Part shown: positions 46,198 to 64,000 of the stretch, piece by piece
Layout: the number at the start of each line of letters is the position of its first letter
Position numbering within the stretch: the stretch's first letter is position 1
DNA from: Candidatus Magasanikiibacteriota bacterium
GTDB taxonomy: Bacteria; Patescibacteriota; Patescibacteriia; Magasanikbacterales; UBA922
Reading direction: 5' to 3'
DNA: 64,000 nucleotides
Assembly: GCA_041665025.1 (NCBI GenBank)
Contig: JBAYJP010000001.1
Span: 16,207 to 80,206 of the forward strand
Position numbers and translations under genes: made by a program
The notes under the pieces: generated by a model
Told to the model about the DNA's origin: nothing
Database searches by the model: none
Seen by the model: the letters and a program-made list of their open reading frames with translations, nothing else

Positions 46198-47217
46198 CTA
46201 TATTTCTTCCACTATTTCTTCTATTTCTTCAATTGTATTCACTCGTACCAATTTACTCCGAATCTCTTTCATTCCTTCCAACCCTTTAAAATAAAAAGCT
46301 AAATGTTTCCGCAGTCCTACTATTCCCCTTTCCCCATAGTGCTGAATTTGAAGTTGAGCATGACGTAATATCACATCTTTTCTTTCTTGCAACGAAATTA
46401 GTGATCGATGATTAGCAATCGACGATAACAACCAGGGGTTCCCCAAGGCTCCTCGTCCAATCATTACTCCATCTGCTCCGGTCGTCTCTAAACATCGCTC
46501 AATATCTTCAGGCGAAGTAATATCTCCATTCGCTATCACGGGTATTTTAACACACTTCTTCGCCTCCCCTATCATCTCCCAGTTTGCCTTTCCACTATAG
46601 CCCTGGACTTTTGTCCTTCCGTGGATCGAAAGAGCATCAACACCAGCCTGTTCTAGCTTTTGCGCAAATTCCAGTATTTCACCTTCTTTAGACCATCCAA
46701 GACGGGTTTTAACACTTATAGGAACCCCCAAATTGGCGTTTTTGAGGGCTTTTACTATCTCTACCGCCCTATTGTGGTCTTTCATAAGCGCAGCGCCAGA
46801 ATCAGCCTTTCCAGCTATTTTCGGAACAGGGCAACCCATATTGATGTCTACCCCAAATTCATCCCGAGCGGAGCGGAGCGGAGAGAAGGGTCTTTCGAAG
46901 GATTCCATTTTTGGATTAAAAAATTTCTCTGTAATAATACGAGCCGCTTCTACAATCACCTCCGGCTTACTTCCAAACAACTGTAACACAATCGACCTCT
47001 CAATTTCTTCAAACTTGCACATGTTTAATGTCTTTTCATTGCCACGCACAATCGCCTCTGCACTAACCATTTCTCTAAAAATTATAAATTCTTTATGTAT
47101 TCCTTTTTCCTTTTTCCTTAATTCTTGTACCTCTCTACATAATATCGAAAACGGCTGATCTGTATAGTCAGCCATAGGCGCGAGAGCAATGATTGGTTTG
47201 TTTTCAATCCATGTCAT
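46198..47217 (-). CDS. tRNA-dihydrouridine synthase (DusB-like)
   Basis: FMN-binding TIM barrel (LAPMADYTD, NMGCP, catalytic Cys region). Contains (GAGCG)x3 at 46866-46880. Confidence 0.8.
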   Translation of the reverse strand: MTWIENKPIIALAPMADYTDQPFSILCREVQELRKKEKGIHKEFIIFREMVSAEAIVRGNEKTLNMCKFEEIERSIVLQLFGSKPEVIVEAARIITEKFFNPKMESFERPFSPLRSARDEFGVDINMGCPVPKIAGKADSGAALMKDHNRAVEIVKALKNANLGVPISVKTRLGWSKEGEILEFAQKLEQAGVDALSIHGRTKVQGYSGKANWEMIGEAKKCVKIPVIANGDITSPEDIERCLETTGADGVMIGRGALGNPWLLSSIANHRSLISLQERKDVILRHAQLQIQHYGERGIVGLRKHLAFYFKGLEGMKEIRSKLVRVNTIEEIEEIVEEI

Positions 47218-48035
47218 ATATCAAGCGGACTTTTTATTTCTGCTAAATTATTCCTCGCCACATGCGTATAAATCTGTGTCGTTTGCAACTTCGCATGACC
47301 CAATAGTTCTTGAATATACCTGATATCTGTCCCGTTTTCAAGCAAATGAGTAGCAAAACTATGGCGCAAAGTGTGGGGAGAGACTTTTTTTCTCAAACCA
47401 GCTTTTTGCGCCGCCTGCGAGACAATTTTTTGTATTGTCGCCTCAGTCAGCCTTTCTCCTCTTCCATTGGTAAAAAGAAAGTCATCTTTATTTTTCAACC
47501 CAGCTTGGACTTCCAAAATAGATAACAATTTTCTAGGCAATACAACCAGCCTATCTTTCTTACCCTTACCTTGAAACACCCTCAACATTTTTCTATCTAT
47601 ATCAATATCACACATCTTGATATGTGTCAGTTCACTTACGCGCACTCCGGTACCATACAATAAACTGATGATACAATTATGTTTGGGGTTGGTAGTCACC
47701 TCTATCATTTTATTCACTTCTTCTTTTGATAAAACAACGGGTAAATACTTATTTTTCTTAGGTTGCTTGATATGTAAAAAAAAATTTCTTTTCCAAATCT
47801 GGCCATAATAAAAATGAAGAGCGTTGTAAGCTACTGCAACGGTACTAGAAGAAACTTTTTGTCCCAAATAATCTAAATAATTTTTAATGTCCTCGGTATT
47901 AGCTTCTCGCGGATCTTTCTGGCAAAACCGCAACAACTCTTCATTATAATGAACATAAGAATCAATAGTGCTTCGACTATAGTTACGGATCCTCAATTCT
48001 CTTTCTAAATTGGAAAAAGTATTGTTTTCCAACAT
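47214..48035 (-). CDS. Tyrosine site-specific recombinase (XerC/D / integrase family)
   Basis: R...HxLRHSFATHLL...LLGHAKLQTTQIYTHV catalytic R-H-R-Y constellation. ATGA overlap with dusB; divergent from the downstream array. Confidence 0.8.
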   Translation of the reverse strand: MLENNTFSNLERELRIRNYSRSTIDSYVHYNEELLRFCQKDPREANTEDIKNYLDYLGQKVSSSTVAVAYNALHFYYGQIWKRNFFLHIKQPKKNKYLPVVLSKEEVNKMIEVTTNPKHNCIISLLYGTGVRVSELTHIKMCDIDIDRKMLRVFQGKGKKDRLVVLPRKLLSILEVQAGLKNKDDFLFTNGRGERLTEATIQKIVSQAAQKAGLRKKVSPHTLRHSFATHLLENGTDIRYIQELLGHAKLQTTQIYTHVARNNLAEIKSPLDI

Positions 48036-48302
48036 ACTTAGTGATAAAATATCATCAACCTATACCCTACTGGGGTATAAGCAAAAATTCACAAAAATTA
48101 TAGCATAACTAAGCCTTTTATGCCAAAAGTTGGCATAAAGGTAGTTAGGCGAAATATTCCTTTTCTTTTTTGGGCTATCGCCCAATTGTTTTAAAAAATT
48201 TTAAAATTTCTTTTTCATTAATTAAAGAGGGGAAAAAGGTGTTTTCTCCGCTCCGCTACGAAAACGATTTATTTATAAGGGGAAAACTAATACAATAACC
48301 AC

Positions 48303-49964
48303 ATGAACAAAAAAATCATAAAATTATCAGTGTTTCTGCTTATCGGTCATTTTTTTATTTTCCCCGAAGCCGCCCATGCAGTAATTCCGCCGGATTTTAT
48401 TTTTAATATCGGAACACAGATAGCTCAATTCTTTTCGATAATTGCAATATTTTTTACTGCCATTCTTGGAACATTTTTTCAGTTTTTCAAGACAAGATAT
48501 TATGCACTTAAACATAAAAAAATAATTCTAAGCCTAACTATCATTGGAATTATAGCAGTATCTCTTACCTCATCTTATTTTTACGCAACATACAAACAAA
48601 AAGCTGAATATCAAAAGTGGCTCAAAGAAAGCCAACAATATAGTACAAACCAAAATACTCAAAATGCCAATTTAGATTATGATAATGACGGATTAACCGA
48701 TCTTGAAGAAACAAATTTCGGCACTGATCTTAATAATCCTGATACAGACGGCGATGGATATTCCGACGGCGAAGAAGTTAAAAATGGATATAATCCAAAC
48801 GGTCCTGGGAAATTTGGAGAAGAAGGCATAAACGAAGACGCAAATGACCAATTAAATATCGGCACTGAAAGTAACAAGAACATCGATACATCTGCTAAAA
48901 AATTTATCTCCAGTGTAAATGTAACTGATAACGCCGCAAGATTTATTAGTGAATACTACGGAAATATCGCTAACGGCAATTTAGAGCAAGCCTATGAGAT
49001 GTCTAAAAAAACTGTTAGCTTTGAGACCTTTAAGGGTTGGTATCTAAAAACATCTAAAATAACATTAGATAAATTGGTTCGAATTGATGAAAAAAAATCA
49101 TCCATAGAATTAACTTTATACGAGGACGGCACATTCACAAGATATGGCGTTTTGATGACCTTAACTTTACAAAGTGAAATACCAGTAAGAGTTGAGAAAT
49201 CGGAAGTTAAAATTTTGGCTCAAGGGTTGATTAATAATCAAAATATTTCTGTTGATGAAAATAAAACTGCCCAAGAGTATGATTTTTTTACGAAAAATGA
49301 AAACACAAACATACTTGTTACAAATCAAGATTTTAAAAATATCACAGACAGCCAGCAAAGTGATTATATTGTTTTAGACGCAAGAGAAGATATTGAATAC
49401 GAAAATGGCTATTTCCCCGGAAGTTTACATATTCGCTTTGCGGACTTAAAAGCAGGTCGTTGGATCGAATTACCAAAAGATAAGCCTGTTTATGTAATTT
49501 GTTGGTCTGGAATTCGAGGCAAAGAAGTAGCCGAATTTTTGAGAACCAAAAAAATTGTGTCTTCTTATTTGGAGAATGGCGCTAACGGCTGGGTTGAATT
49601 TGGCGGAAAATGGATCGGAGAAATCAAATTCGGGGAAAAATATACAGATCCAAAATATCAAATCGTTTTTAGTACGGATGATGTTAAAAAGAAAGTAACA
49701 GAGGGTGTGGTTCTTGTTGATACGAGAGAACCGTATAAATTCAATCAGTCAAATATAGCAGGAAGCGTCAATATTCCAATTATGTACACTCCAACTATCA
49801 ATCTTGAAAAGACATTTAGCCAAGTTCCAGTGAATAGCAAGGTTATTACAGTATGCGACGGATACGTTAATTGTTTTGATGCTAAAATTACGGGTGTTGA
49901 ACTGGAAAGACGTGGACATCAATTTTTAGGCAGATATAACAAACCTTGGGAATATGAAAAATAA
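48303..49964 (+). CDS. Secreted protein with Ca-binding D-x-D-x-DG repeats and two C-terminal rhodanese domains
   Basis: N-terminal TM/signal, DYDNDGLTDLEE...DTDGDGYSDGEE, rhodanese active-site loops CWSGIRG and CDGYVNC. Confidence 0.6.
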   Translation: MNKKIIKLSVFLLIGHFFIFPEAAHAVIPPDFIFNIGTQIAQFFSIIAIFFTAILGTFFQFFKTRYYALKHKKIILSLTIIGIIAVSLTSSYFYATYKQKAEYQKWLKESQQYSTNQNTQNANLDYDNDGLTDLEETNFGTDLNNPDTDGDGYSDGEEVKNGYNPNGPGKFGEEGINEDANDQLNIGTESNKNIDTSAKKFISSVNVTDNAARFISEYYGNIANGNLEQAYEMSKKTVSFETFKGWYLKTSKITLDKLVRIDEKKSSIELTLYEDGTFTRYGVLMTLTLQSEIPVRVEKSEVKILAQGLINNQNISVDENKTAQEYDFFTKNENTNILVTNQDFKNITDSQQSDYIVLDAREDIEYENGYFPGSLHIRFADLKAGRWIELPKDKPVYVICWSGIRGKEVAEFLRTKKIVSSYLENGANGWVEFGGKWIGEIKFGEKYTDPKYQIVFSTDDVKKKVTEGVVLVDTREPYKFNQSNIAGSVNIPIMYTPTINLEKTFSQVPVNSKVITVCDGYVNCFDAKITGVELERRGHQFLGRYNKPWEYEK

Positions 49965-51996
49965 CGTCATTCAATCTCAAGAGATTGACCAAAATAAAAA
50001 ATATTTAGGTAATAAGACGCTTAATCTACAAAAGCTCGTAGATTGGGGTTTCCATGTTCCAAAATTTATTGCAATACCTTCGCACATCTCTAGCAATTTA
50101 TACTCAGATGAAAATCTGAAAAAAGAAATAGCCCAAGAAGCAATAAGAATTTTGCAATGCAAAAAATATGCAGTGAGATCAAGCGCTTTAATTGAAGACG
50201 GTGAGAACAGGTCATTCGCCGGCCAATTCAACACTAAACTAAACTTATCCAGCAACGAGCTAATTGGAGGAATAGGCGAGGTGTTAAAGCAGGCAAACGA
50301 TTTTCTTCACGATGAACTTGATAAATTTTCAATAATTATTCAGGAATATATTGCACCCGATATTTCGGGAGTTACTTTTACGCGAAATCCACATGGTAGT
50401 AGAGAAATGATAATTGAATACGGATTTTGCGAAGGAGAAAAAATAGTAAGCGGAGAAATAAAACCAGAAAAAACCTCTTTTTATTGGAACGAACAAGACA
50501 TTAAATTGCCCAAACAATTTTTAACAAACCGAGTAATTAAAAAATTCAAAGAAATCGAAAACAAAAGTAAATTTCCGCAAGACATTGAGTGGTGTATTAA
50601 AGACAACAAATTTTATTTGCTACAAACAAGGCCAATAACAACAATTACCAGCAAACAATACGAGCAAATAAATTTTTTAGAAAAACAATTATCGGAAAGA
50701 GAAGAATATTTTTTTGAAAAAACAGAAATTTCAGAAATTGCACCACGACCGACAGAATTTACTCTAAGTCTTTTGAAGACTATTTACTCTCAAAATGGAC
50801 CAGTAAGCAGGGTTTATAAAAAGTACGGCGTTAATTTTACCGATACAAACTTTTTGAAAATTATAGGAAATGAGCTTTTCGTAGATAAAGAAAGAGAAAT
50901 CCAAGGATTGCTTCCATGTTATAGTTATTTGCAAAATCAAAATTTTGTTCCCAAATTCAGCTACTATTCCCAAATGATTCCAACGATAAAAAATCTTTTC
51001 TTTCTAAATAAAATTAGAACGAATGGCTACGAGAAAATATTTCAAGATTTAAAAACAAGAATTGAAACAACTAATCAAGGCAAAAATTATCAAACAGCGT
51101 TAAAAGTTTTTTTAGAGGATTATAAATTAATTTTTGAAACCAACCTCTTATCAGGCTTAGCTATAAAAAAACTAAATTCTCTGCTTAAAAATGAAGTCGT
51201 AAAATTACCAGATATTTTAAATGAAAGCAGTGTTTTTATTGATTTAAATAAATATAAAGTCTCATCACCTCAAAATTTAAAGGGTAATTCTTTAGAAATT
51301 GCTGATGAATCAAATTTTTCAGCTACTGAAAAAACTGAGAGGCAATCAAGCGACAAAGTATCGCAATGGTGGAAAAAAATATCCGATTTCAAGAAAAAAA
51401 TACTTCAAGACAAAATTAAGGAAGCTATAATCTATAATCGTTTAAGAGAATTAGGGAGGTGTTTGACGATCAAAAACATAAACGCAATAAGGAACTTTTT
51501 ATTAAGTTATGCGAAAAATCAAGGATTTAACGACTTACAGAATATTTATTTTACCAGTATCAATGAAGTTATTAATGATCGGGCTGATAAAATAGTTTGT
51601 AAAAAAAGAAAAAATATTTACGACCAATACAATGATTATAAGCTGCCAAACTCAATTACTTCATCATTTATCCAAAAGAGAACAGGAATTTTAGGCGTTT
51701 CCGCAGGATTAACGCAAGGTATTTTGCAAAATCACGAATACCTAGATTCGGAAAAATCAGATGACTCAAAAATTATTTTGTATACTGAAATATTATCGCC
51801 GAACTTAACAAAATATTTTGACAGGATTTCAGGAATTGTTTCAGAAAATGGAGGTTTATTATCGCATTTAGCAATCGTAGCTCGTGAAAATAACATCCCA
51901 GTTATAACTGGATTTTCATTATCAAATAGTATTTTAAAATTAGGCAATTCCGTGCAAATCGACGGTAGTAATGGTAAAATAGAAAAAATACAATAA
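49954..51996 (+). CDS. PEP-utilising-enzyme family phosphotransferase (PpsA-type ATP-grasp N-domain + C-terminal phosphohistidine swivel domain; rifampin-phosphotransferase-like architecture)
   Basis: SSALIEDGENRSFAGQFNT near the N-terminus and GGLLSHLAIVARENNIPVITG at the C-terminus; no TIM-barrel PEP domain. Confidence 0.6.
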   Translation: MKNNVIQSQEIDQNKKYLGNKTLNLQKLVDWGFHVPKFIAIPSHISSNLYSDENLKKEIAQEAIRILQCKKYAVRSSALIEDGENRSFAGQFNTKLNLSSNELIGGIGEVLKQANDFLHDELDKFSIIIQEYIAPDISGVTFTRNPHGSREMIIEYGFCEGEKIVSGEIKPEKTSFYWNEQDIKLPKQFLTNRVIKKFKEIENKSKFPQDIEWCIKDNKFYLLQTRPITTITSKQYEQINFLEKQLSEREEYFFEKTEISEIAPRPTEFTLSLLKTIYSQNGPVSRVYKKYGVNFTDTNFLKIIGNELFVDKEREIQGLLPCYSYLQNQNFVPKFSYYSQMIPTIKNLFFLNKIRTNGYEKIFQDLKTRIETTNQGKNYQTALKVFLEDYKLIFETNLLSGLAIKKLNSLLKNEVVKLPDILNESSVFIDLNKYKVSSPQNLKGNSLEIADESNFSATEKTERQSSDKVSQWWKKISDFKKKILQDKIKEAIIYNRLRELGRCLTIKNINAIRNFLLSYAKNQGFNDLQNIYFTSINEVINDRADKIVCKKRKNIYDQYNDYKLPNSITSSFIQKRTGILGVSAGLTQGILQNHEYLDSEKSDDSKIILYTEILSPNLTKYFDRISGIVSENGGLLSHLAIVARENNIPVITGFSLSNSILKLGNSVQIDGSNGKIEKIQ

Positions 51997-52119
51997 GGTG
52001 TTTTGGGCTACGGGCATTCACCCCTTTAATTCCCCTCTGCCCTTCGCCCAAAACGGAAAAAGAAATTTGAAAATTTTTTAAAACAACCAACTATCATCGG
52101 AAAAGAAAAGGAATACATC

Positions 52120-52221
52120 AGCTAACACGGCATATCTGGTTACGGCTTTTATACAAAAGCCTCCATCCATATTTGCCTTCGCTACGCTACGGCAAACATC
52201 AGATATGCCGATACGTTAGAC
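52120..52221 (+). repeat. attC-like imperfect palindromic intergenic repeat (site 1)
   Basis: 5' AGCTAAC-a-CGGCATATCTG ... CAGATATGCCG-atac-GTTAGAC 3'. The GTTAGAC end matches GTTRRRY, with bulged bases and internal hairpins. Confidence 0.35.
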
Positions 52222-52284
52222 GAAATAAATTATTTTTTCCTGTCCGATTTTTCAATTTTAATGGAAGGGGGTGAATTTTTGTGA

Positions 52285-53355
52285 TTGTTGACGAGGGGTA
52301 ATAATGGTATAAATAAACTTATGACAGAAAATAACTTTTCTCGGCCTACATTTTTAAAACCTGAGATAAAACTTGAAGCTGGTTACACCGATCCGGAAAA
52401 TGATGAAAAACATTTTTACCATGGAAATTTTGTAGTTGTGGCAGATCTAAAAAATATACCAAAAGAAATACGTGAAAAAATTCCTGGCGGATATATCTTA
52501 AAACAATATCAATCTGAAGAATACTCACCCAATTGGAATGAACTATTTGAAGCGGACAAAGAAGTAAATACAAATACAGCAGAAAAAAAAGGAACATGGG
52601 TGATTATCGACGCATTTGAAGACGCCTTTAACAAATTTGGTAGACGGCCGACTGTCAATGAAGTTCTTACTCTAATTTCAGACGACAAAAAAAGCGAAAT
52701 GGCTATCGATGAAAATTTTATCGTTCAAACACTAAAAAAATACTCTTTGGAAACAAAGGCTCGAAAACTTAAAAAACGCTATGAAGAAATAAAAAACGTT
52801 TTTTCAGATGAATTACCAAATATAATATTACCAACGCAATTTATTATTGGTGCTGAAGAAAACCGACAACACCCGGATCGCGATGGAGCAAAACGACTTT
52901 ACGAATTACAACCAAAAATCAATGCTTTAAAGTTACGCGGTACAAGGCCGGTACATGAATATCTCCATACTGGAGGCAATCCTGGAAAAAATTTTCTATA
53001 CGATAGCCCTCACGTACCAATACCAGAAAACATTATTAACATCGTAAAAATGTGGGCAAAACAGATAAAAGAAACCTTTCCAAAACAATGTGCGCAAATA
53101 AAAGAGGAACTTGAAAAATTTATTGAACTGGCACGTCCAATCCCAGAAAAAATGAATGAGATACCACACGATATGGTTCATCCTGTGAATGTTGGATTTA
53201 CAGCTGATGGCATTAGAATATTTGATATAAATTTAGTATTACCTAATTTGGATAAAGACGATAAACGGCGTAAAACTCTTTTTAATCCGGACATTTGGCT
53301 TGCTCGGTATAATCGCTTGTTAGATATTTGGAAAATAGTTTACGACGAATTGTAA
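52285..53355 (+). CDS. Hypothetical protein with kinase-like (APH/choline-kinase) catalytic-loop signature
   Basis: HDMVHPVNVGFTADGIRIFDINLV resembles the HGDxHPGN...IDxE Brenner/DFG-like region. Confidence 0.35.
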   Translation: MLTRGNNGINKLMTENNFSRPTFLKPEIKLEAGYTDPENDEKHFYHGNFVVVADLKNIPKEIREKIPGGYILKQYQSEEYSPNWNELFEADKEVNTNTAEKKGTWVIIDAFEDAFNKFGRRPTVNEVLTLISDDKKSEMAIDENFIVQTLKKYSLETKARKLKKRYEEIKNVFSDELPNIILPTQFIIGAEENRQHPDRDGAKRLYELQPKINALKLRGTRPVHEYLHTGGNPGKNFLYDSPHVPIPENIINIVKMWAKQIKETFPKQCAQIKEELEKFIELARPIPEKMNEIPHDMVHPVNVGFTADGIRIFDINLVLPNLDKDDKRRKTLFNPDIWLARYNRLLDIWKIVYDEL

Positions 53356-53460
53356 ACCACGGAGTAGGCGCAATTCACCCCTGCCCCTCTTGCTCCCCAC
53401 CAACGAAAAAATTCCCCCCCTACATTTGATAAAATCGGACAGAAAAAAATAATTTACATC

Positions 53461-53540
53461 GTACAACACCGAGTATCTGGTTTCGCTTCGCTTCACCCAT
53501 ATTGCTATCGCAACATCAGATACTCGGATATTGTGCTTAT
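53461..53540 (+). repeat. attC-like imperfect palindromic intergenic repeat (site 2)
   Basis: GTACAAC-ACCGAGTATCTGG ... CAGATACTCGG-atatt-GTGC; shares a central TTCGCTTCGCTTCACCCATATTGCTATCGCAACATC with site 4. Confidence 0.35.
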
Positions 53541-53560
53541 TTATCTTTTAAAATATTCTT

Positions 53561-54073
53561 ATGAAAACATTACTAATATCGATGATGGTCATCTCAGTAT
53601 TGATTCTAAACGGATGTACTAAAGAACGGCCTCAACCAAATTCTCTCAACGAAAAATCGACAATTAACGAAGTATCACCCACTCCAAATATTACTCAAGA
53701 AAAGAAGATGGCTGATTTTACGACAAGCTATATCCCGGACAGCTGGGTTATCGAAGAAAATTTTTTCTACAGTCCTGAAATGTATAATGCGCGAGAAGGT
53801 GGTCCCTATAGTTTGAACATTAATATAAACGAAAAATTTTCTTCTATAGACAATTATCTTAAAGATAAGAGCAATTGCGTTACAGATAAGACAGAATTTA
53901 AAATAAACAATTACCCAGCCGTCCGGTTTACGGATTCTTGCGCCTATGGGAAGCCTAAAATGACTCTTATGCAAATAAACGAGAATTTGGTTGAGGCTTT
54001 TAGCTATTCTTTTTCTGATGAATCAAAAGCAATAGTCAAAATATTGGAAACATTGGATATAAAAAATAAATAA
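53561..54073 (+). CDS. Hypothetical lipoprotein
   Basis: Signal peptide with lipobox (LNGC). Confidence 0.4.
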   Translation: MKTLLISMMVISVLILNGCTKERPQPNSLNEKSTINEVSPTPNITQEKKMADFTTSYIPDSWVIEENFFYSPEMYNAREGGPYSLNININEKFSSIDNYLKDKSNCVTDKTEFKINNYPAVRFTDSCAYGKPKMTLMQINENLVEAFSYSFSDESKAIVKILETLDIKNK

Positions 54074-54154
54074 GCACAACAGCGTATAACACGCTATATC
54101 CAAAATTTACTACGCTACGCTTTAGTAAACTTCGGATATAGCGATACGTTATGT
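54074..54154 (+). repeat. attC-like imperfect palindromic intergenic repeat (site 3)
   Basis: GCACAAC-ag-CGTAT-aacac-GCTATATCC ... GGATATAGC-g-ATACG-TTATGT. Confidence 0.35.
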
Positions 54155-54246
54155 GCCATAATAAAAAACCATTTATGTTTGACTTCTTAAAATTATTGTG
54201 GTAATTTCTATCTAAGATACTTTTATTTATTTTTAACATAAAATCT

Positions 54247-54504
54247 ATGGGCGAATTCAATTTAGAGGCAGAAGCTGCCGCTGCAGCAGCACGCACAGAT
54301 AGAGGAGTGCAAGAAAATGTATTTCGAGGATTACCGGAAGTACAACTTTCTTCTTTTACTCCCGAAATGGCTGCTGCATTAAGAAGCATGGATACCGAGA
54401 ATCCCGTACTAGAAAATGCAGAATTACAAGCTTATGTTGATACGCTTACTAAAGCCCAGCGCGACCAGCTCCAATCACAGGCTAGCAATGTAGACCCAGA
54501 ATAA
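54247..54504 (+). CDS. Small acidic Ala-rich hypothetical protein
   Basis: ORF with a hairpin terminator downstream (54568-54606). Confidence 0.3.
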   Translation: MGEFNLEAEAAAAAARTDRGVQENVFRGLPEVQLSSFTPEMAAALRSMDTENPVLENAELQAYVDTLTKAQRDQLQSQASNVDPE

Positions 54505-54752
54505 ATTACCACAACAATTTTAAGTAATGGTTTTTTATTACGTCACATAACAACCGATATCAGGTTCAAAAAATAGTGCTTTTCAATTTTAGTGGAAGCA
54601 CTATTTTTTTCTCCCATATGCCGGTACTTGAATTGTAAGTCTAAAGCGTTTACAATGAATGGTAGTGAAGTCAAAGAGTGTGCTAAAACAATGGCGCCAC
54701 TTCTGATATCGGCGAACATTGCACAAAATAAAAATTTAATTATTTTGCTACC

Positions 54753-55490
54753 ATGAAATTCAAAGAAGGATACAAATATACAAACCTCACCGGATACATA
54801 AATATTTTTTCCAACCCTCAATGGTATTTGGATACACAATCTGAACTCAAGGAATTTTTTTATGATTACGATGGTAATAAGGAAAACAAATCGCAAGAAT
54901 GGCTCGAGAAAAGAAACGAATTTGTAAAAATGGTTTGTGAACTTTTAGAAGCAGACCAAATTGCTCTTGGTGATTCTGGAATAAACTGGGATAAGGATCG
55001 TTCGCCAATAGATACAATTGTTATACACCATACCAGTACGCCATCAGACATCCCCATTGCAGCAATTAATGCACTAGGATTGATTCGTTTGTATGCACCA
55101 AATTACAGCAAAAAAGATGAAGAGCAATTTGGTCAACCAATTTGGTCAAACCATTTTTACAAAAACAGACAAACATTCATTGCTTATCATTACATAATCA
55201 GACAGGACGGGTCTTTTGAACATATACTACAAGATAACCAAACAGGTTGGCATTGTGGAAATTGGGATTATAACTGCCGAAGTATTGCGATTTGTTTTCT
55301 TGATGATCTAAAAGAAAAAAGACCGACTGAAAAAGCACTTCGAACAGCAAATGAAATCATAAAAAAATATCCAAATTGTAATATCCTAGGTCATAGAGAA
55401 ATTAAACCCACAACGACTTGCCCAGGTAATCTGTTTCTAGAGAAAGATGGTTGGAAAAACGACGTATTTCTGAAACCGCAAAATAATTAA
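54753..55490 (+). CDS. N-acetylmuramoyl-L-alanine amidase (amidase_2 / PGRP fold)
   Basis: IVIHHTS, AYHYII, GWHCGNW, ILGHREI...TCPG zinc-amidase motifs. Confidence 0.7.
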   Translation: MKFKEGYKYTNLTGYINIFSNPQWYLDTQSELKEFFYDYDGNKENKSQEWLEKRNEFVKMVCELLEADQIALGDSGINWDKDRSPIDTIVIHHTSTPSDIPIAAINALGLIRLYAPNYSKKDEEQFGQPIWSNHFYKNRQTFIAYHYIIRQDGSFEHILQDNQTGWHCGNWDYNCRSIAICFLDDLKEKRPTEKALRTANEIIKKYPNCNILGHREIKPTTTCPGNLFLEKDGWKNDVFLKPQNN

Positions 55491-55500
55491 ATTTTTACAT

Positions 55501-55579
55501 CGCACAACAGCGTGTATGCGGTTCCGCTTCGCTCCACCCATATTGCTAACGCAACATCGTATATACGCGGACGTTATAC
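55501..55579 (+). repeat. attC-like imperfect palindromic intergenic repeat (site 4)
   Basis: CGCACAAC-ag-CGTGTAT ... ATATACG-cggac-GTTATAC; the central part is ~85% identical to site 2. Confidence 0.35.
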
Positions 55580-55663
55580 GAAATAAATTTTTTCTTTTTA
55601 TTTTTCTCAAATGACTTACAATAGACATTATGGAAATAATGTTGATAAGACTAAACGATTAAA

Positions 55664-55909
55664 ATGCCAAATAACAAAAATACAAACTTTAGAAAGCTAT
55701 ACTCACATTTAGAATCAACTATAATAATATTTTTGTGGATTTCTATTTTCTTTTGGATCTTTTATGAAGGTTCGATTAATGCGGGTATTTGGGGAAAATG
55801 GAAAGGCTTAGAGATCATATTTCCACTCATCATTTCTTTCTTCATCTCATCAATTATAATATTGCCTCTGTATTTAATAAAAATATTTTTCAAAAGCAAG
55901 AAAAAATAA
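55664..55909 (+). CDS. Small membrane protein
   Basis: Two TM helices. Confidence 0.3.
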   Translation: MPNNKNTNFRKLYSHLESTIIIFLWISIFFWIFYEGSINAGIWGKWKGLEIIFPLIISFFISSIIILPLYLIKIFFKSKKK

Positions 55910-55996
55910 CAAGCTTTCAAAGGGGAATAAATTTGATTTATTTAAAAAGAAAAAACTTATATAATACCTACACCTTTTAGTTAATAAGAGATCAAT

Positions 55997-56281
55997 ATGA
56001 AAACGAAAAAAATAAAAATCACTACGGGTGTGGTTCATAAAGTTCCCAAGGATTTAGAGAAGGTTTTAAGCTCCAATCCTGATTTGCTTACCAAATGGAA
56101 TGGCCTAACCCCTCTATCTCGCAATGAGTGGATTTGTTGGGTCACTATTGTGAAAAAGCCAGAAACTCGTAATAAGCATATTGAACGCTTATCTGAAGAA
56201 CTCCTTGAGGGGGCAAAAAGACCTTGTTGTTGGCCAGGTTGTCCTCATCGCAGACCAAATGCGAAAAAATGGTTTAAGTAA
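55997..56281 (+). CDS. YdeI/OmpD-associated (DUF1905-like) family small protein
   Basis: WICWVTIVKKPETRNKHIERL resembles the AKKPETR hallmark. Confidence 0.45.
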   Translation: MKTKKIKITTGVVHKVPKDLEKVLSSNPDLLTKWNGLTPLSRNEWICWVTIVKKPETRNKHIERLSEELLEGAKRPCCWPGCPHRRPNAKKWFK

Positions 56282-57836: not shown

Positions 57837-58343
57837 ATGAAAAAACTACTCCTATTGTTTTCATTACTGGTCTTATTGAGTGGATGTTCTTTGCAAAAGA
57901 CTATAACACAACCATCAGTGAACAACGAGCAACAAGCAACTAGAACAAACAACAACCAACCGTCGAACGCTGATAATCGATCGTCAATTACCTCTAATTA
58001 TGAGTTACCCGTTACGAGTACACAAAAAACCATAGATACTCCAACACAAATAATCATCCCCGAGACACAACTCAAAATCAACAGCATCATCTATCCCCTC
58101 ACCCCAGGCAAAAACGTCTATGATGCGATGGCAGAACTTTCCCAAGTTTCATCACAACCCTTTATATTTTCTACCAAAAATTATCCAGGCATGGGACAAT
58201 TTGTAGAAGAAATAAATGGGATTAAAAATGATTTCAAGCAAAACAAATACTGGATTTATTACATCAACAACAAATCAGCCATCGCGGGCATTTCACAATA
58301 TATTATTCAGCAGGGGGACATAATCGAATGGAAGTATGAATAA
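57837..58343 (+). CDS. DUF4430-domain lipoprotein (transcobalamin beta-domain-like B12-binding module)
   Basis: Lipobox LSGCS. C-terminal pattern GQFVEEINGI...KYWIYYINN...GDIIEWKYE typical of DUF4430. Confidence 0.55.
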   Translation: MKKLLLLFSLLVLLSGCSLQKTITQPSVNNEQQATRTNNNQPSNADNRSSITSNYELPVTSTQKTIDTPTQIIIPETQLKINSIIYPLTPGKNVYDAMAELSQVSSQPFIFSTKNYPGMGQFVEEINGIKNDFKQNKYWIYYINNKSAIAGISQYIIQQGDIIEWKYE

Positions 58344-60045
58344 TAAATGCAAAATGAAAAATGCAAAATGCAAAATTTTCCTTATATTATTAATTACTTT
58401 GGCTGCTATATCTACACCGGTGTATGCCGAAGATGTTACAGAAGAAAATTTAGATGAACAAATTGATGAAACTCCAATAATATTAGAAGAAACACCATCT
58501 ACTCTGCCAGAAGAAGAACAGCCGACTGAAATACCTGAACCAACACTTGATCCGGAACCAAATCTAGAGCCAGAAGTAGAAGAAACGCTAGAACTCACTC
58601 CACCGGTTGAGGAAACTCCTCAAATAATCATGGAGACTATAAGCCAAAGCCAGATACAGAAAGCCGTAGATAAACTTTTAACATATCTAGAATCAGAGCA
58701 ATCCGAAGATGGAAAAATAATGGATGGTACCATTACTGATTGGTCAATACTTTCTTTTGGCGCCAATGAACAATACGCAGATGACATAAAAAATGGCACG
58801 TCCTCTCTTTTGGATTACGAAAAAAAATATAATTTGGATGATCCAAGCGATTTAAATTCATGTGCAACCTATCCGCGCCATATCCTTGCATTACTTGCTG
58901 CAGGTGTAGAGCAGACAGATTTCGCGATTATAGGCCTCAAAGAAAAAATGAATACCGTTTGTTATGCACATGGCATGTATGGATTACATGGGATTAATGA
59001 TGATGTATTTGCTTTACTTGCACTTTCTGCGCTTGATACAAGCCAGTCAGAGCCAATTATACAAGATATTGTCTCTACCACGCTGTCATGGCAAATAGAC
59101 AACGGTGCTTTTTCCTGGCCCGACTGGATGGACCCAAATCAGAAAGTCGCTGGGGATGATATTACTGGTGCGACCATAAATGCATTGACATATGCGAAGT
59201 CAAAAGGAGCTGTAATTTCTGATGACGTATTTTCCCAAGCAAAAAACTATTTGAAGACAACTCAACAAATGGACGGCGGATGGGGCTATGGATCGTCTGA
59301 TATTATGACTACAAGCTGGGTGCTTATGGGTATCAACTCGATGCAAGAAACTCAGCAAGATTGGTTTGTGACGTCTACAGGTAAAAACCCATGGCATCCA
59401 TTAGTAAATAATGTAAAAACAGATGGATTTTATGAATCTGCCTGGACGCCTGGTACGGTAGATTGGTTTGCCATGAAACACGCGGTTCCGGCACTGCTTC
59501 AAAAATCTTGGCCAATCATTTTGACTCCAAAAATAACTGACTTTTCTAAAGACACGACATTTACGTATGGTGGCGGAGGAGGTATTTCTCCAACTCCAAC
59601 TTCAGTGCCTACCACAACTATTGATATAGCTACAACAACCCTGCAAATTCTAGAAATAATCATACCCACCTCTACTCCAACATCAACAGTGAAAATTATA
59701 GAAACTCCGACAAGTACACCAACCACGACAATTGAAATACTGACAGAGCACACTGAAAAAATATCCAAAGAAATTGTGGTCCCCAACATAGAGCCTAAAA
59801 TCAAACCCGCATCAGTTCTTGGAACACGTGTTGTGGAACCAAAGAAGGATGAGCTAGCGCAAATTGACAAGGAAAAAAATACCAATACACCAGTAATTGA
59901 TGAAAATATTTTGGATGAAAAAATCCAGGCTGAAAATACCAGCCAAAGCCCTTTTTCAAACAAAAAAATGATACTTGGAGCTGGCATACCGCTCGGTGGG
60001 CTCTTGGTATATCTTGGTTTGAAATTCTCAAAGATAATGGTATAA
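58336..60045 (+). CDS. Surface-anchored protein with prenyltransferase/terpene-cyclase-like alpha-alpha toroid repeats, acidic and T/P-rich linkers, C-terminal TM anchor
   Basis: Signal peptide, QMDGGWGYGSSD-type repeats, TPTSTPTTT linkers, C-terminal hydrophobic helix. The first ~40 nt are an ATGCAAA-type heptamer repeat with ATGs in several frames, and the likely start is 58354 (MKNAKCKIFL...). Confidence 0.55.
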   Translation: MNNKCKMKNAKCKIFLILLITLAAISTPVYAEDVTEENLDEQIDETPIILEETPSTLPEEEQPTEIPEPTLDPEPNLEPEVEETLELTPPVEETPQIIMETISQSQIQKAVDKLLTYLESEQSEDGKIMDGTITDWSILSFGANEQYADDIKNGTSSLLDYEKKYNLDDPSDLNSCATYPRHILALLAAGVEQTDFAIIGLKEKMNTVCYAHGMYGLHGINDDVFALLALSALDTSQSEPIIQDIVSTTLSWQIDNGAFSWPDWMDPNQKVAGDDITGATINALTYAKSKGAVISDDVFSQAKNYLKTTQQMDGGWGYGSSDIMTTSWVLMGINSMQETQQDWFVTSTGKNPWHPLVNNVKTDGFYESAWTPGTVDWFAMKHAVPALLQKSWPIILTPKITDFSKDTTFTYGGGGGISPTPTSVPTTTIDIATTTLQILEIIIPTSTPTSTVKIIETPTSTPTTTIEILTEHTEKISKEIVVPNIEPKIKPASVLGTRVVEPKKDELAQIDKEKNTNTPVIDENILDEKIQAENTSQSPFSNKKMILGAGIPLGGLLVYLGLKFSKIMV

Positions 60046-60169
60046 TGAAGTTGTAAAGTTCAAAGTTATAACGTTATAAAGTTTTGGAAAACCAATGCCA
60101 ACTCCAAAATTATTAACTTATAGCTCTATAACTTTACAACTTGGAACATTATAACTTTCAACTAAAACT

Positions 60170-60562
60170 ATGCTTAAACATAAAATTTCATCTCTAAGTT
60201 TAATCATTATAGCGGTTAGTTTATTTATCACCGGTTGTGGCAATAGTCTTGTCAAAGGTGACAAAGAATACACCTACACACTCAATGTAAAAAAATCACC
60301 AACAAATGTCACTGCCATGGAATTAACCTCAACCGCAAAGGAGATGTCGCTTGGGTCAGCCATAACTGAATTAAAAAACTCAGGACAGCAGATCGCCTTG
60401 GCTGATGAAACAACCGAATACATGCGCGTGACAGAGATGCTCGGGGTCATCAATACCCAAGGCAAGCAATGGCATGCATATGTGAATAATACTAAAATTG
60501 AAGATACTAATTTGGGAGTTGCTATTAAACCAGACGATAATATTGAATGGAAATATGAGTAA
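60170..60562 (+). CDS. DUF4430-domain lipoprotein, paralog 2
   Basis: Lipobox ITGCG, same C-terminal ...NIEWKYE ending and pattern as 57837-58343. Confidence 0.55.
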   Translation: MLKHKISSLSLIIIAVSLFITGCGNSLVKGDKEYTYTLNVKKSPTNVTAMELTSTAKEMSLGSAITELKNSGQQIALADETTEYMRVTEMLGVINTQGKQWHAYVNNTKIEDTNLGVAIKPDDNIEWKYE

Positions 60563-61356: not shown

Positions 61357-62781
61357 TTATCCAAACTTCTCAAACTCAATCTCCTCGCCTGTATCAGTCT
61401 TAAACTTCGGCGCTGTATCCACTTCTTCAGTTGGTGCAAAAGTAGGTGCATCATATATAGCTTCCACAGGCAATCCCGCAGGGGGTTCGGCAGATTTGAC
61501 TGCAGCTTTTTGGATCATAGGCGTCTTCACATGAGACATGGGGAAATGCCAAATAGTTGCAAGCTCTTCAATATTCAAGACATATGGATTTGCGCCAATT
61601 TTGATCTTGCGTTTTTTGTATGCTTTCATAAGTACACTCTTTCTTCTGTTTGCTTTCACCACATTGCGGAGCCCTGTATGCACTTTCTTTACAATTGAAT
61701 TTGCGCTTGGAATATTGAACTGATTAATAGCACCAATAAGCGCATTTACACCGCGGGTCGGACTGAACACTTCCTTTCTTCCAATATATATACCACGAAT
61801 TTTTGTTTTAAATCCAATTTTTGCCATTTTTTCTTCCATAAGTTCAACCACTTTTACCTGGCCGGGCGTCATATATCTCAGTTTGTTTGGATCTTTTTTT
61901 ACCTCATGAGCTTCTTCTGCTTCAAAATTACCCCCACTCAGTATCTGAGCATTGACTTCACTCAGACCCTTTTTAAGCTCATTCATAAGTGGGTTATCCA
62001 AAATATGACCCATAATACCCTTTCCGTGTTTTTCTTCTTCTCCTATTAGTTCTTTCACTTGTTTAATTGCCTTTTCTTTCCAATGATTGTTTACCGGTTC
62101 AACAATAATTTGAAGCCACATCTGTTCTCCATGCCCAATGCGCGTGAAACTTTCTAGTAGCGTCCCCATTGGATCTTTCAAGACCGTATCCTTTGAAATA
62201 TTATGCTCAAATTCACGGTATGAACGTATAGGAAATGCATCATTCTCTGCCAAAGCAAAATCCGCTGCCCAGATATCATAATCATCATTCGGAAATGAGT
62301 CTGGCACAGTAGAGACATAATCTTCTATTTCTACTATTTCGGCTTCTGGGTACTGTGCATAAATAGTTGTCTCAATAAGATCACGGAATGCTACCTCTGT
62401 CCACACAATAAATTGTATATACCCGCCAATGCTTACAATCTCAAAACTAAAACAACGCTGTTTGAATCCATCTCTAAATTTCTCACGCAAATCAGGATTA
62501 TTGAGAGACCCTGCCAAATGCGCAAACATTTGTTCAACTGCTTTAGGCGTTTGCACATTGAGTTGGGGAATATCTATCGCAAGCACGACATATTTCCAAT
62601 CATGCATAAATTTATTTTCCCGTAATTTCGCATACAGATTAATCCCTGCGTAAAACAACAGATAAACCAAAACAAGCCACCCGCCAATAGCAAATACTCG
62701 AATAACAATCTCAAACGCTGTTGACTGCTCAAGAAATGCGATAATAAGTGCCACGTCAATTGTGAATGCGCCAAACTGCAT
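61357..62781 (-). CDS. Hypothetical membrane-anchored protein (474 aa)
   Basis: Two N-terminal TM helices, large soluble domain with no recognised motif. Confidence 0.5.
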   Translation of the reverse strand: MQFGAFTIDVALIIAFLEQSTAFEIVIRVFAIGGWLVLVYLLFYAGINLYAKLRENKFMHDWKYVVLAIDIPQLNVQTPKAVEQMFAHLAGSLNNPDLREKFRDGFKQRCFSFEIVSIGGYIQFIVWTEVAFRDLIETTIYAQYPEAEIVEIEDYVSTVPDSFPNDDYDIWAADFALAENDAFPIRSYREFEHNISKDTVLKDPMGTLLESFTRIGHGEQMWLQIIVEPVNNHWKEKAIKQVKELIGEEEKHGKGIMGHILDNPLMNELKKGLSEVNAQILSGGNFEAEEAHEVKKDPNKLRYMTPGQVKVVELMEEKMAKIGFKTKIRGIYIGRKEVFSPTRGVNALIGAINQFNIPSANSIVKKVHTGLRNVVKANRRKSVLMKAYKKRKIKIGANPYVLNIEELATIWHFPMSHVKTPMIQKAAVKSAEPPAGLPVEAIYDAPTFAPTEEVDTAPKFKTDTGEEIEFEKFG

Positions 62782-63198
62782 ATATAGTAGTCAATTTGAA
62801 AGACAAAAATTTTTTATAATGTACGAAATACGAAAGCTACGAAATATACAAAACTTCATTAAATTATTTCGAATTTTCGAAGTTTTCGTATTTCGTATAT
62901 GCTCTTTAGACATCGACCAATTTGAAAATAATCGGGTACAGCACAAGCACGCCCAAAAATGTCCACCACCAGCCAATAGTTCCTGAAACAAAACCTGCAA
63001 AATAAACAACAGCCAAAATAAGTACCGCAATGACGGTAACTAAATGGCGAATGACGGAATCGCTCATAAAATTAGTTCTTAGTTCTTAGTTCACAGCCAA
63101 TAGGTCATATTTTCTATTGGCTAAGAACTATTGGCTATGAACTTAATTATAGCACAAAACAAAAAAGCCCCCAAGGGGGCATATGATGTATAAGAGGA

Positions 63199-64000
63199 TT
63201 AATGGCGAGATGTGATTTTCTGCCATGTAACCAGAAATGGACTCGCCACAAATATAGAAGAATATGCGCCAAGGAAAATACCAATCCACAACGCGAGAGA
63301 AAAATATTTGATTGTCTCCCCACCCAAAAAGAATAGTGTCGCAAGTGGGAAAAGAGTGGTCAATGTCGTATTCAATGAGCGTGCCATAGTTTCGTTAACC
63401 GCGTAATTAACCGTTTCATCAAAATGTTCTGTACTTCTACGGATAAGATTTTCTCTAACACGATCAAATACAACAATAGTATCATTGACTGAATAACCAA
63501 GAATAGTAAGCAACGCAACCACAAACGCTACATCGACTTCTACACCCATAAATTTTCCCAGAAAGGCAAAAACACCGGCGGTAATAGTGACATCATGCAT
63601 AAGAGCAACAACGGCAACCACGCCGTACTTCCACGAAGCAACCGGTTTTGATACTTTCCTAAATGCATAAGCTATAAACAATATGATTGCCACACAGACC
63701 ACAATAATAGCGGTGACTGAACGTTGTTTTAGTTCTGCACTAACCGAAGGACCAATAGTTTCAAATCTTTGTTCAAGAACTTTTTGATCACCTTTTTCAT
63801 AACTCGTACGCAATAGATCAAGTAAATTTTGGTGTTCATCCTCAGTCAAAAAACGAGTTTTGACAATCATGTTGGTGTCTCCCGATGTCTGTACTACTGC
63901 ATTACCAAATGCAGACTCTACAGAACCACGAACTTCAGGAACTGCAGGACGCTCAGTAGTAAAAGAAACTTCCAAAACTGAACCTCCAGTAAAATCCATG
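63199..64000 (-). CDS. secF: Protein-export membrane protein SecF (or SecDF C-terminal half); 5' end beyond window
   Basis: TIVVFDRVRENL and SecD/F 6-TM pattern; ORF is open at the window end. Confidence 0.8.
   Translation of the reverse strand, partial: MDFTGGSVLEVSFTTERPAVPEVRGSVESAFGNAVVQTSGDTNMIVKTRFLTEDEHQNLLDLLRTSYEKGDQKVLEQRFETIGPSVSAELKQRSVTAIIVVCVAIILFIAYAFRKVSKPVASWKYGVVAVVALMHDVTITAGVFAFLGKFMGVEVDVAFVVALLTILGYSVNDTIVVFDRVRENLIRRSTEHFDETVNYAVNETMARSLNTTLTTLFPLATLFFLGGETIKYFSLALWIGIFLGAYSSIFVASPFLVTWQKITSRH

Follow-up and report, generated by a model that had tools for sequence, protein, structure and literature searches.

What are the hairpins that follow gene after gene in part of a Candidatus Magasanikbacteria genome, and why do their sequences differ while their structures do not? 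The question arose from a stretch of 64,000 nucleotides (the window; about 36% G+C; contig JBAYJP010000001.1, positions 16,207 to 80,206) of this member of the candidate phyla radiation (CPR), in which a first-pass annotation had described a composite intergenic repeat family at 52000-55620. All the elements quoted for that region are present, and the proposal that conserved structure with variable sequence denotes a functional nucleic-acid fold passed the covariation test. The hairpins are real, although the composite model in which they were placed is wrong in detail. Our results indicate that they are probably the sites of an integron-like cassette array, in which folded sites derived from dif are paired with an XerA/IntI-like tyrosine recombinase that lacks the IntI-specific domain. 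This type of array has apparently not been described so far.

Four of the hairpins lie at 52127-52214 (A, arms CGGCATATCTG / CAGATATGCCG), 53468-53529 (B, arms CCGAGTATCTG / CAGATACTCGG), 54092-54143 (C, arms CGCTATATCC / GGATATAGCG) and 55502-55579 (D, stem GCGTGTATGCG / CGTATATACGC, with two G.T pairs). The stem of D had been overlooked, as had a fifth hairpin with a 137-nt loop, site E (54545-54724). All five are on the + strand and share the same bracketing, ACATCG-NNNN-AAC-A-[stem…stem]-NNAC-GTT-NNNN-GAAAT. A covariance model built from 20 family members, with site E left out of the building, matched nothing in the 64 kb but these five + strand sites, which all fall within 3.5 kb (52120 to 55579) and have scores of 86.5 (A), 60.7 (B), 49 (C), 22.8 (E, with E = 0.011) and 65.4 bits (D).

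Family members were also taken from 160 related loci (L001-L160; 80 from genomes and 80 from metagenomes), which were retrieved with the protein of the tyrosine recombinase gene that lies beside the hairpins. Direct MAFFT alignments misregistered stem C and the variable 3' spacers, and loop-excised constructs in a fixed register were used instead; a crude hairpin scan gave many AT-rich false positives. In the 26 members from the window and the related loci, inner stem pairing reached 98.8%, nine of the ten inner-stem pairs had changed on both sides, and the covariation score over 17 pairs (inner stem and R box) was 0.659 versus 0.161 in shuffled sets (0/500), while slid-register controls were paired at 26-41%, with the caveats that the register of the 3' arm, or spacer length, was picked by best pairing and that the 26 sequences are mutually related. 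Site lengths varied between 54 and 202 nt in the window and related loci. Over 10-11 bp the inner stems pair perfectly. The sole conserved asymmetry is an A against NNAC, so that on the bottom strand it is the 5' arm that has the extra bases.

The recombinase gene (47214..48035, - strand) is divergent from the hairpin-bearing region and is transcribed away from it. Between the gene and the first unit lies an attI-like primary site (48097..48144, + strand) that is conserved in eight genomes: the sequence from the recombinase gene to the first unit is kept in eight Magasanikbacteria, and conservation ends exactly at GGTAG|TTA, which sets the junction at 48144|48145. The primary site forms a small hairpin of its own (TTATGCCAA, 48118-48126, with TTGGCATAA, 48130-48138, + strand), followed by AGG-TA-G, and its arms covary between genomes. 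In DPANN archaea the primary site is a 12-8-12 palindrome (12-bp inverted arms with 8 bp between them) followed by (G/T)T-G|TT, and in one related locus (L001) an extra unit is inserted exactly at the G|TT of the primary site. The adjacent recombinase gene, the G|TT boundaries and the pairing of leaders with trailers described below had not been noticed in the first-pass annotation.

From this junction the array runs to about 55573 and consists of at least five cassettes. Each unit between hairpins holds one or two ORFs (open reading frames), all of which, from 48303 to 55490, read on the + strand, and every cassette has the same order: TT-NNNN-GAAAT, leader, ORF(s), trailer and ACATCG-NNNN-AAC-A-[hairpin]-NNAC-G. 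Cassette 1 (48145..52215) comprises a leader (48145-48302), two ORFs with Pfam matches to rhodanese/TSP3 (48303-49964) and PPDK_N/PEP-utilizers (49954-51996), a trailer (51997-52119) and site A (52120-52221). Cassette 2 (52216..53530) has a leader (52216-52320), an ORF without a Pfam family (52321-53355), a trailer (53356-53460) and site B (53461-53536), where the junction is A|TT. The remaining three are cassette 3 (53531..54148; ORF 53561-54073; site C 54084-54154), cassette 4 (54149..54718; ORF 54247-54504; site E 54545-54724) and cassette 5 (54719..55573; ORF 54753-55490, Amidase_2; site D 55502-55579), all on the + strand. The functions predicted with Pfam for this cargo (a rhodanese, a PPDK-like protein, an amidase and proteins of no known family) are mutually unrelated.

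We rejected the alternative of placing the boundary on the 5' (AAC) side, so that each hairpin would belong to the ORF downstream of it. In L003, hairpin A and the trailer before it are 84% conserved while the sequence beyond GTT differs, indicating that the hairpin goes with the upstream ORF. L001 likewise keeps hairpin A with its upstream trailer and differs after GTT; moreover, conservation of the primary site stops at GTT, and the unit that is duplicated in L001 shares the G|TT.

The start of each unit is complementary to its own end, as is classically seen where crossover takes place at G|TT. Taken over consecutive sites in the window and the 160 related loci, the match between the four variable bases that follow G|TT and the AAC box of the next site is 3.21 of 4 positions (23/39 perfect), versus 1.92 for boxes across the same hairpin and 1.79 for random pairs (p = 8e-8 and 1e-12, values that are inflated because the related sequences are not independent). 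Exact pairs in L003 include GTTATCG/CGATAAC, GTTAGCT/AGCTAAC and GTTAGGC/GCCTAAC. The complementarity extends well beyond these boxes, since in both the window and L003 the trailer of each cassette aligned as the complement of its own leader. In the window the own leader/trailer alignment scores for cassettes 1-5 were 60, 62, 34, 53 and 40 (off-diagonal mean 19, maximum 31), and in L003 they were 74, 50, 28, 40 and 16 (off-diagonal mean 17, maximum 23). The same signal appears as inverted repeats: I1 in cassette 2 (37 nt, 86% complementary), I18 in cassette 5 (20 nt, 100% complementary), I2 and I9 in cassette 1, and I7 and I15 in cassette 4. The conserved 5' box that had been reported directly after the stop codons at 51996 and 53355 is therefore real as sequence, but it is not a repeat box; what had been seen is the trailer of cassette 1 and that of cassette 2, either of which is complementary to the leader of the same cassette. 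When a cassette end is joined to its own start a single long hairpin is predicted, at -88, -62 and -60 kcal/mol in three cassettes, versus only -50, -27 and -33 kcal/mol when the same ends are joined to the leader of the neighbour; the first two pairs of values are those of the circularised junctions of cassettes 1 and 2. As a speculation, this pairing could stabilise the site in an excised circle or, on a single strand, unite the two sites that flank a cassette.

Searching the related loci with the covariance model at E <= 0.1 gave 33 matches in genome loci and 41 in metagenome loci. All 74, in 37 loci, are upstream of the recombinase gene and on the opposite strand, a compartment that makes up roughly 20-25% of the sequence searched, and 58 of them had not been used in model building; no match was found off this side and strand in the 1.7 Mb of related loci. 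The bacterial hosts are Magasanikbacteria and other Patescibacteria, with recombinases 55-86% identical to ours (no relative above 86% identity was found among the related loci). The archaeal hosts are the DPANN groups Woesearchaeota, Nanoarchaeota and Aenigmatarchaeota, with recombinases about 38-48% identical, and their sites even share the loop boxes GGTT, CCACCCAWATTT and AAACWTC together with the pentamer motif discussed below.

There is also evidence that units have moved and that their content turns over. L001 carries a 148-nt unit without an ORF (TTGTGACGG…GCGCGCCCCA) twice, at the primary site and after cassette 1, with identical ends and different neighbours. The cassette ORFs of the window have no homologues in the related loci, while the Dus and glycosyltransferase backbone behind the recombinase gene is syntenic in L001. 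Ten of the 16 closest genome contigs terminate at most 700 nt upstream of the recombinase gene, as would fit assemblies that break at a variable array. Since a conserved site ends at the junction, each start complements its own end, a unit has moved and the content turns over, we consider these units to be cassettes.

Which strand folds bears on whether the sites act as DNA or as RNA. The bottom strand, antisense to the ORFs, was predicted to fold, as DNA, with the lower energy in 26 of 27 sites; in the set from the related loci it folded better in 65 of 72 (p = 5e-11), including 49 of the 56 that are independent of the model. The motif GCGNAGC is confined to the bottom strand, with 18 copies in the set of 27 sites, 28 in that of 72, and none on the top strand in either. 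This motif, a very stable GNA-triloop DNA mini-hairpin, is the reverse complement of the (CGCTN)n pentamer core that had been singled out before. GNA-triloop mini-hairpins are a cap type seen in short attC loops. The pentamer core CGCTNCGCT is indeed enriched (eight copies in the window versus 0.52 expected; 0/100 shuffles reach eight) and five of the eight copies are on the + strand inside the array; the pentamer at 48241 falls within the leader of cassette 1. Rather than forming a core of the repeat, the pentamer core sits at variable positions in the loops, as expected of a cap. The three other matches (46787-46880, - strand) lie inside the Dus coding region and are probably coding sequence unrelated to the hairpin family. 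Taken together, the folding bias and the GCGNAGC bias favour a folded single DNA strand over a role of the sense strand as RNA, and argue for sites that would act as single-stranded DNA, as the attC sites of integrons do (PMC3053210). Of the three functions that had been put forward for the hairpins, the recombination site is thus supported and the two RNA options are disfavoured.

The recombinase has 273 aa, carries the Pfam domains Phage_integrase and Phage_int_SAM_4, and retains the catalytic R, K, HxxR, H and Y residues. It passes the NCBIfam model NF040815 (XerA / integron integrase) at 259.1 bits (cutoff 220), and stays under the cutoff of 265 for TIGR02249 (integron integrase), which it matches in two stretches at 234 bits. 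It is equidistant from VchIntIA (2a3v) and XerA (5hxy), at E about 1e-50 each (for XerA, E = 9e-51 over residues 17-266). Canonical IntI proteins among the related loci (L072, L077-L079) carry an insert of about 45 aa, which is missing from all array-linked CPR and DPANN proteins. The recombinases of L004, L006 and L012 have G/S/P-rich low-complexity inserts of about 8-30 aa near the position of the IntI extra domain, which they do not resemble. In a neighbour-joining tree without support values, used only as a hint, XerA proteins adjacent to dif formed one clade, and the CPR array type, the DPANN array type and canonical IntI formed the other.

The sites themselves point to dif. The consensus of 76 array sites reads ACATC-GYATAAC-A-[hairpin]-RNAC-GTTATRC-GAAAT, with AAC conserved at 97-100%, TT at 98% and G at 80% (otherwise A). 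XerA genes without arrays have dif-like sites 48-330 nt upstream that are contiguous and read TCG-YRYR-AAT-RTAY-ATT-RYRY-CGA. Such contiguous sites were found in the DPANN loci L017 (9670), L020 (9415), L024 (7520), L034 (913, TCGCACAAT-ATAC-ATTGTGCGA), L049 (9512), L105 (4800) and L111 (33), indicating that dif adjoins xerA in these archaea. Comparing the two, the arms that flank the hairpin correspond to the two arms of dif and NNAC matches its central motif, so that, judged by sequence, an array site may be read as a dif site whose central region has received a structured palindrome. The insert is not the same from site to site, which makes exchange of both strands across it unlikely, whereas a single exchange of the bottom strand, as in integrons and the CTX phage, would fit.

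From these observations we propose a mechanism in which the neighbouring tyrosine recombinase would serve the array. When the bottom strand is single-stranded each site would fold, its two arms pairing into a duplex that resembles one dif arm, while the inner stem, with the conserved TAT and the bulge of 3-4 nt, would offer a second binding surface and GCGNAGC mini-hairpins would cap the loops. The recombinase would then cut and exchange only the bottom strand at G|TT, the cut position of IntI on attC and that of the right-arm Xer monomer on the bottom strand of dif. Recombination between two sites would excise a cassette as a circle, and recombination of the circle with the primary site would re-insert it. 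Pairing of leader and trailer would lengthen the stem in the circle and, on a single strand, bring the flanking sites together.

In integrons, as here, a divergent tyrosine recombinase gene lies by a conserved primary site ending at G|TT, and the ORFs share one orientation, with an imperfect palindrome between AAC and GTT after each of them. Structure is kept while sequence is not, the bottom strand folds better (here by prediction), the cassette start is complementary to its own inverse core, loops have GAA-type caps and the cassette content is hypervariable. There are also differences. attC is an imperfect palindrome running from an inverse core RYYYAAC to a core GTTRRRY over 57-141 bp (PMC3053210), and the middle positions of our GYATAAC and GTTATRC alternate between R and Y instead of being YYY and RRR; where attC has its T-N6-G bases, our sites have an asymmetric loop of 1 x 4 (A against NNAC), which lies on the other arm; and the stem, which in canonical attC stops at the crossover, continues here for 20-130 nt through leader/trailer pairing. 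In addition, the primary site forms a small hairpin of its own, conserved boxes (listed above) are present in the loops, the recombinase falls short of the IntI model and has no IntI-specific domain, and the hosts are CPR bacteria and DPANN archaea.

Several of these differences weigh against an integron-like array. VchIntIA residues about 185-238 are unmatched in the recombinase, a stretch that includes K209, Y210, W219 and P232, which hold the extrahelical bases, and VchIntIA H240/H241 align to E/R. Without the IntI-specific domain canonical attC recognition cannot apply, and the recombinase could simply be the Xer of the cell. Nor do the sites show the canonical T-N6-G extrahelical bases, their bulge being on the opposite arm, although this absence is consistent with a recombinase that lacks the residues gripping such bases. 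The own-cassette rule at the four variable bases is weak for three of the five window cassettes, in which only the longer arms carry the signal, and it is uncertain where beyond site D the array ends. Finally, recombination has been deduced from sequences and not from events observed directly, such as circular junctions or population variants that differ by one cassette.

The protein family and the sites also invite comparison with Xer systems. XerA acting on a 28-bp dif shares with our array the protein family (NF040815, 5hxy), the arms TCG-YRYR-AA(T/C) and (A/G)TT-RYRY-CGA, the RTAY centre and the cut at A/G|TT. Unlike our sites, dif is one contiguous site (about 28 bp, with two 11-bp inverted arms and a 6-bp centre) and there is one per replicon, whereas in the array the arms are split by a structured palindrome of 50-200 nt, at least six sites are in tandem with unrelated accessory genes between them, and the arm bases covary cassette by cassette. 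The CTX phage and integrative mobile elements exploiting Xer (IMEX) present a folded single-stranded hairpin as a mimic of dif. They share with our proposal an Xer-type enzyme acting on a site folded from one strand, a single exchange resolved by replication, and tandem integration at one locus; they differ from the array in that its units of 0.4-4 kb have no phage or replication genes, a complete hairpin site is kept at every junction and the recombinase gene is physically linked. The pdif modules of Acinetobacter plasmids are bounded by contiguous 28-bp duplex sites in alternating orientation. Like our cassettes they are discrete accessory-gene modules between Xer-type sites, but the sites described here are split by hairpins, uniform in orientation and chromosomal.

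The main rival to single-stranded cassette exchange is a version of the same system that works on duplex or cruciform DNA, in which IMEX- or pdif-like units would have accumulated in tandem at a dif-like site. A recombinase that passes the XerA model without an IntI domain, dif arms around the hairpin, an NNAC that resembles the dif central region, and DPANN primary sites with the geometry of a core site (12-bp inverted arms around 8 bp) would all be expected of it. In duplex DNA, however, the arms would be 50-200 bp apart and the site-specific sequence between them would block exchange of both strands, while neither a duplex nor a symmetric cruciform is expected to produce the bottom-strand bias in folding and GCGNAGC. 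All sites have one orientation, whereas those of pdif generally alternate, and Pfam found no replication or phage genes in the units. We consider this explanation unlikely, but it is the one to be taken most seriously after our own.

Still less probable is that we are dealing with an ordinary integron cassette cluster (CALIN), whose true IntI is elsewhere or lost and which lies beside a dimer resolvase by coincidence. In its favour, attC sites classically show AAC…GTT boxes, the own-cassette rule and a bottom-strand bias, and CALINs are common, DPANN archaea included (PMC9668308 Data S1). A coincidence of this kind would have to recur at 74 of 74 sites, always on the same side and strand of one recombinase clade in two domains of life, and would leave unexplained the conserved primary site right beside the gene, with its end at G|TT, sites without canonical extrahelical bases, and arms that match the dif sites of the same protein family. 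The remaining explanation, that these are RNA-level or generic repeats unrelated to the recombinase (stabilisers of 3' untranslated regions, terminators, structured RNA, or palindromes of the repetitive extragenic palindromic (REP) or miniature inverted-repeat transposable element (MITE) kind), is very improbable. In its favour, the sites come after stop codons, there is a terminator-like hairpin (54568-54610) within site E, and an action of leader/trailer pairing on mRNA is conceivable. Against it, the strand that folds better is antisense to the ORFs, a scan of the whole window with Rfam found zero families at or above the gathering score, and the terminator scan detected no T-run immediately past the stems. 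Nor are the sites dispersed like REP, bacterial interspersed mosaic element (BIME) or MITE repeats, the five matches in the 64 kb being clustered in the array; nor are the copies fragments of a large mobile element spread over unrelated contexts. The G|TT boundary rule and the duplicated unit would be unexplained.

Beyond the cassette array in this genome, we are evenly divided on a broader proposal, namely that a short XerA/IntI-like lineage without the IntI domain, common to CPR and DPANN, runs gene-cassette platforms with palindrome-split dif sites, either as a second, domain-less class of integron or as a surviving intermediate between Xer/dif and integrons. A non-exhaustive literature search found no description of integrons in CPR/Patescibacteria and none of cassette arrays run by an Xer-like enzyme without the IntI domain. 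Archaeal integrons have been reported in 75 genomes with only six IntIs (Ghaly et al. 2022, PMC9668308), and several genomes of Woesearchaeales, Pacearchaeales and Aenigmatarchaeota have 2-12 attC and no IntI (PMC9668308 Data S1). If the proposal is true, it would supply the missing integrase for many archaeal attC clusters that are now scored as lacking IntI. The IntI-specific additional domain is placed around patch III (Messier and Roy 2001, cited in PMC9668308) and is required by IntegronFinder; since integrons are defined and searched for by this domain, surveys would miss a whole class if a platform works without it, and recognition of extrahelical bases would be inessential to the integron lifestyle. 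The dif-like arms would offer a testable route from Xer/dif to folded sites of the attC type, bearing on the long-standing question of the origin of integrons. The proposal would also mean that CPR bacteria and DPANN archaea, ultrasmall and dependent on hosts, have a common way of swapping accessory genes, possibly across domains, and would account for assemblies that break right by the recombinase gene. At 250-273 aa such a recombinase is compact and, if made to act on designed hairpins, could also be of use in the laboratory.

After site D there is a possible decayed sixth unit (55574..55985, + strand), with an ORF (55664-55909), GTTAATA at 55979, a degenerate AAC box (ATATAATAC, at about 55964-55972) and no hairpin. 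Inverted repeat I6 lies here, and the own leader/trailer score of 31 does not exceed the off-diagonal maximum. The next gene, of the OmdA family (55997-56281), has a homologue in L092 (3581-3835, 72% identical) that sits in the recombinase-proximal region of that genome; the homology is limited to the coding region and yields no distal boundary, and the array may continue in decayed form.

A scan for promoters and terminators showed no enrichment versus shuffles, and only a promoter-like site of the recombinase gene stood out (48126..48097, - strand; TTGGCA-18-TATAAT, 11/12 matches, with a TG extension), which overlaps the primary site. The direct repeats D3 and D8 proved to be promoter-like AAAAAACTT…TATAAT stretches and were rejected as members of the hairpin family.

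Two of the sites have peculiarities of their own. The 137-nt loop of site E holds the intrinsic-terminator-like hairpin mentioned above (AATAGTGCTT…AAGCACTATTTTTTT, + strand). Site C has tandem AAC-A boxes at 54073-54091, GCACAAC-A and GTATAAC-A, the outer of which (GCACAAC, 54073-54079) pairs with the start of cassette 3 itself, TTGTGC; this doubling may have been left behind by slippage or by an earlier recombination event.

The frame of cassette 1 (leader 48145-48302, trailer 51997-52119 and hairpin A) is kept as an early cassette at 70-91% identity in L001, L003, L011/L090, L093, L094 and L096. Its cargo varies in length and content, being a rhodanese and a PPDK-like protein here and apparently other ORFs in L001, so that cargo seems to be exchanged within a fixed cassette frame. 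A second, GC-rich type of site, AAT-GGGCCGCGGG…CCCGCGGCCC-ATT, in which AAT/ATT replace AAC/GTT, forms mini-cassettes of about 150-250 nt without ORFs. These occur in multiple copies per array and often in first position (L001 1986-2133 and 381-545; L006 521-668, 1517-1732, 2136-2351 and 3006-3153; also right after the primary site in L004, L013, L015 and L095), and may be selfish or regulatory.

The window also contains an intergenic palindrome of AAAGTT-type repeats at 60048-60163 (AAGTTGTAAAGTT…AACTTTACAACTT and AGTTCAAAGTTATAACGTT…AACATTATAACTTTCAACT), between the ORFs 58336-60045 and 60170-60562, which does not belong to the hairpin family. Two further clusters of inverted repeats (62819-62900 and 63069-63148; TACGAAA repeats and AGTTCTTAG / CTATTGGCT repeats) lie between the minus-strand genes 61357-62781 and 63199-63999, upstream of the former, and may be operators or iterons.

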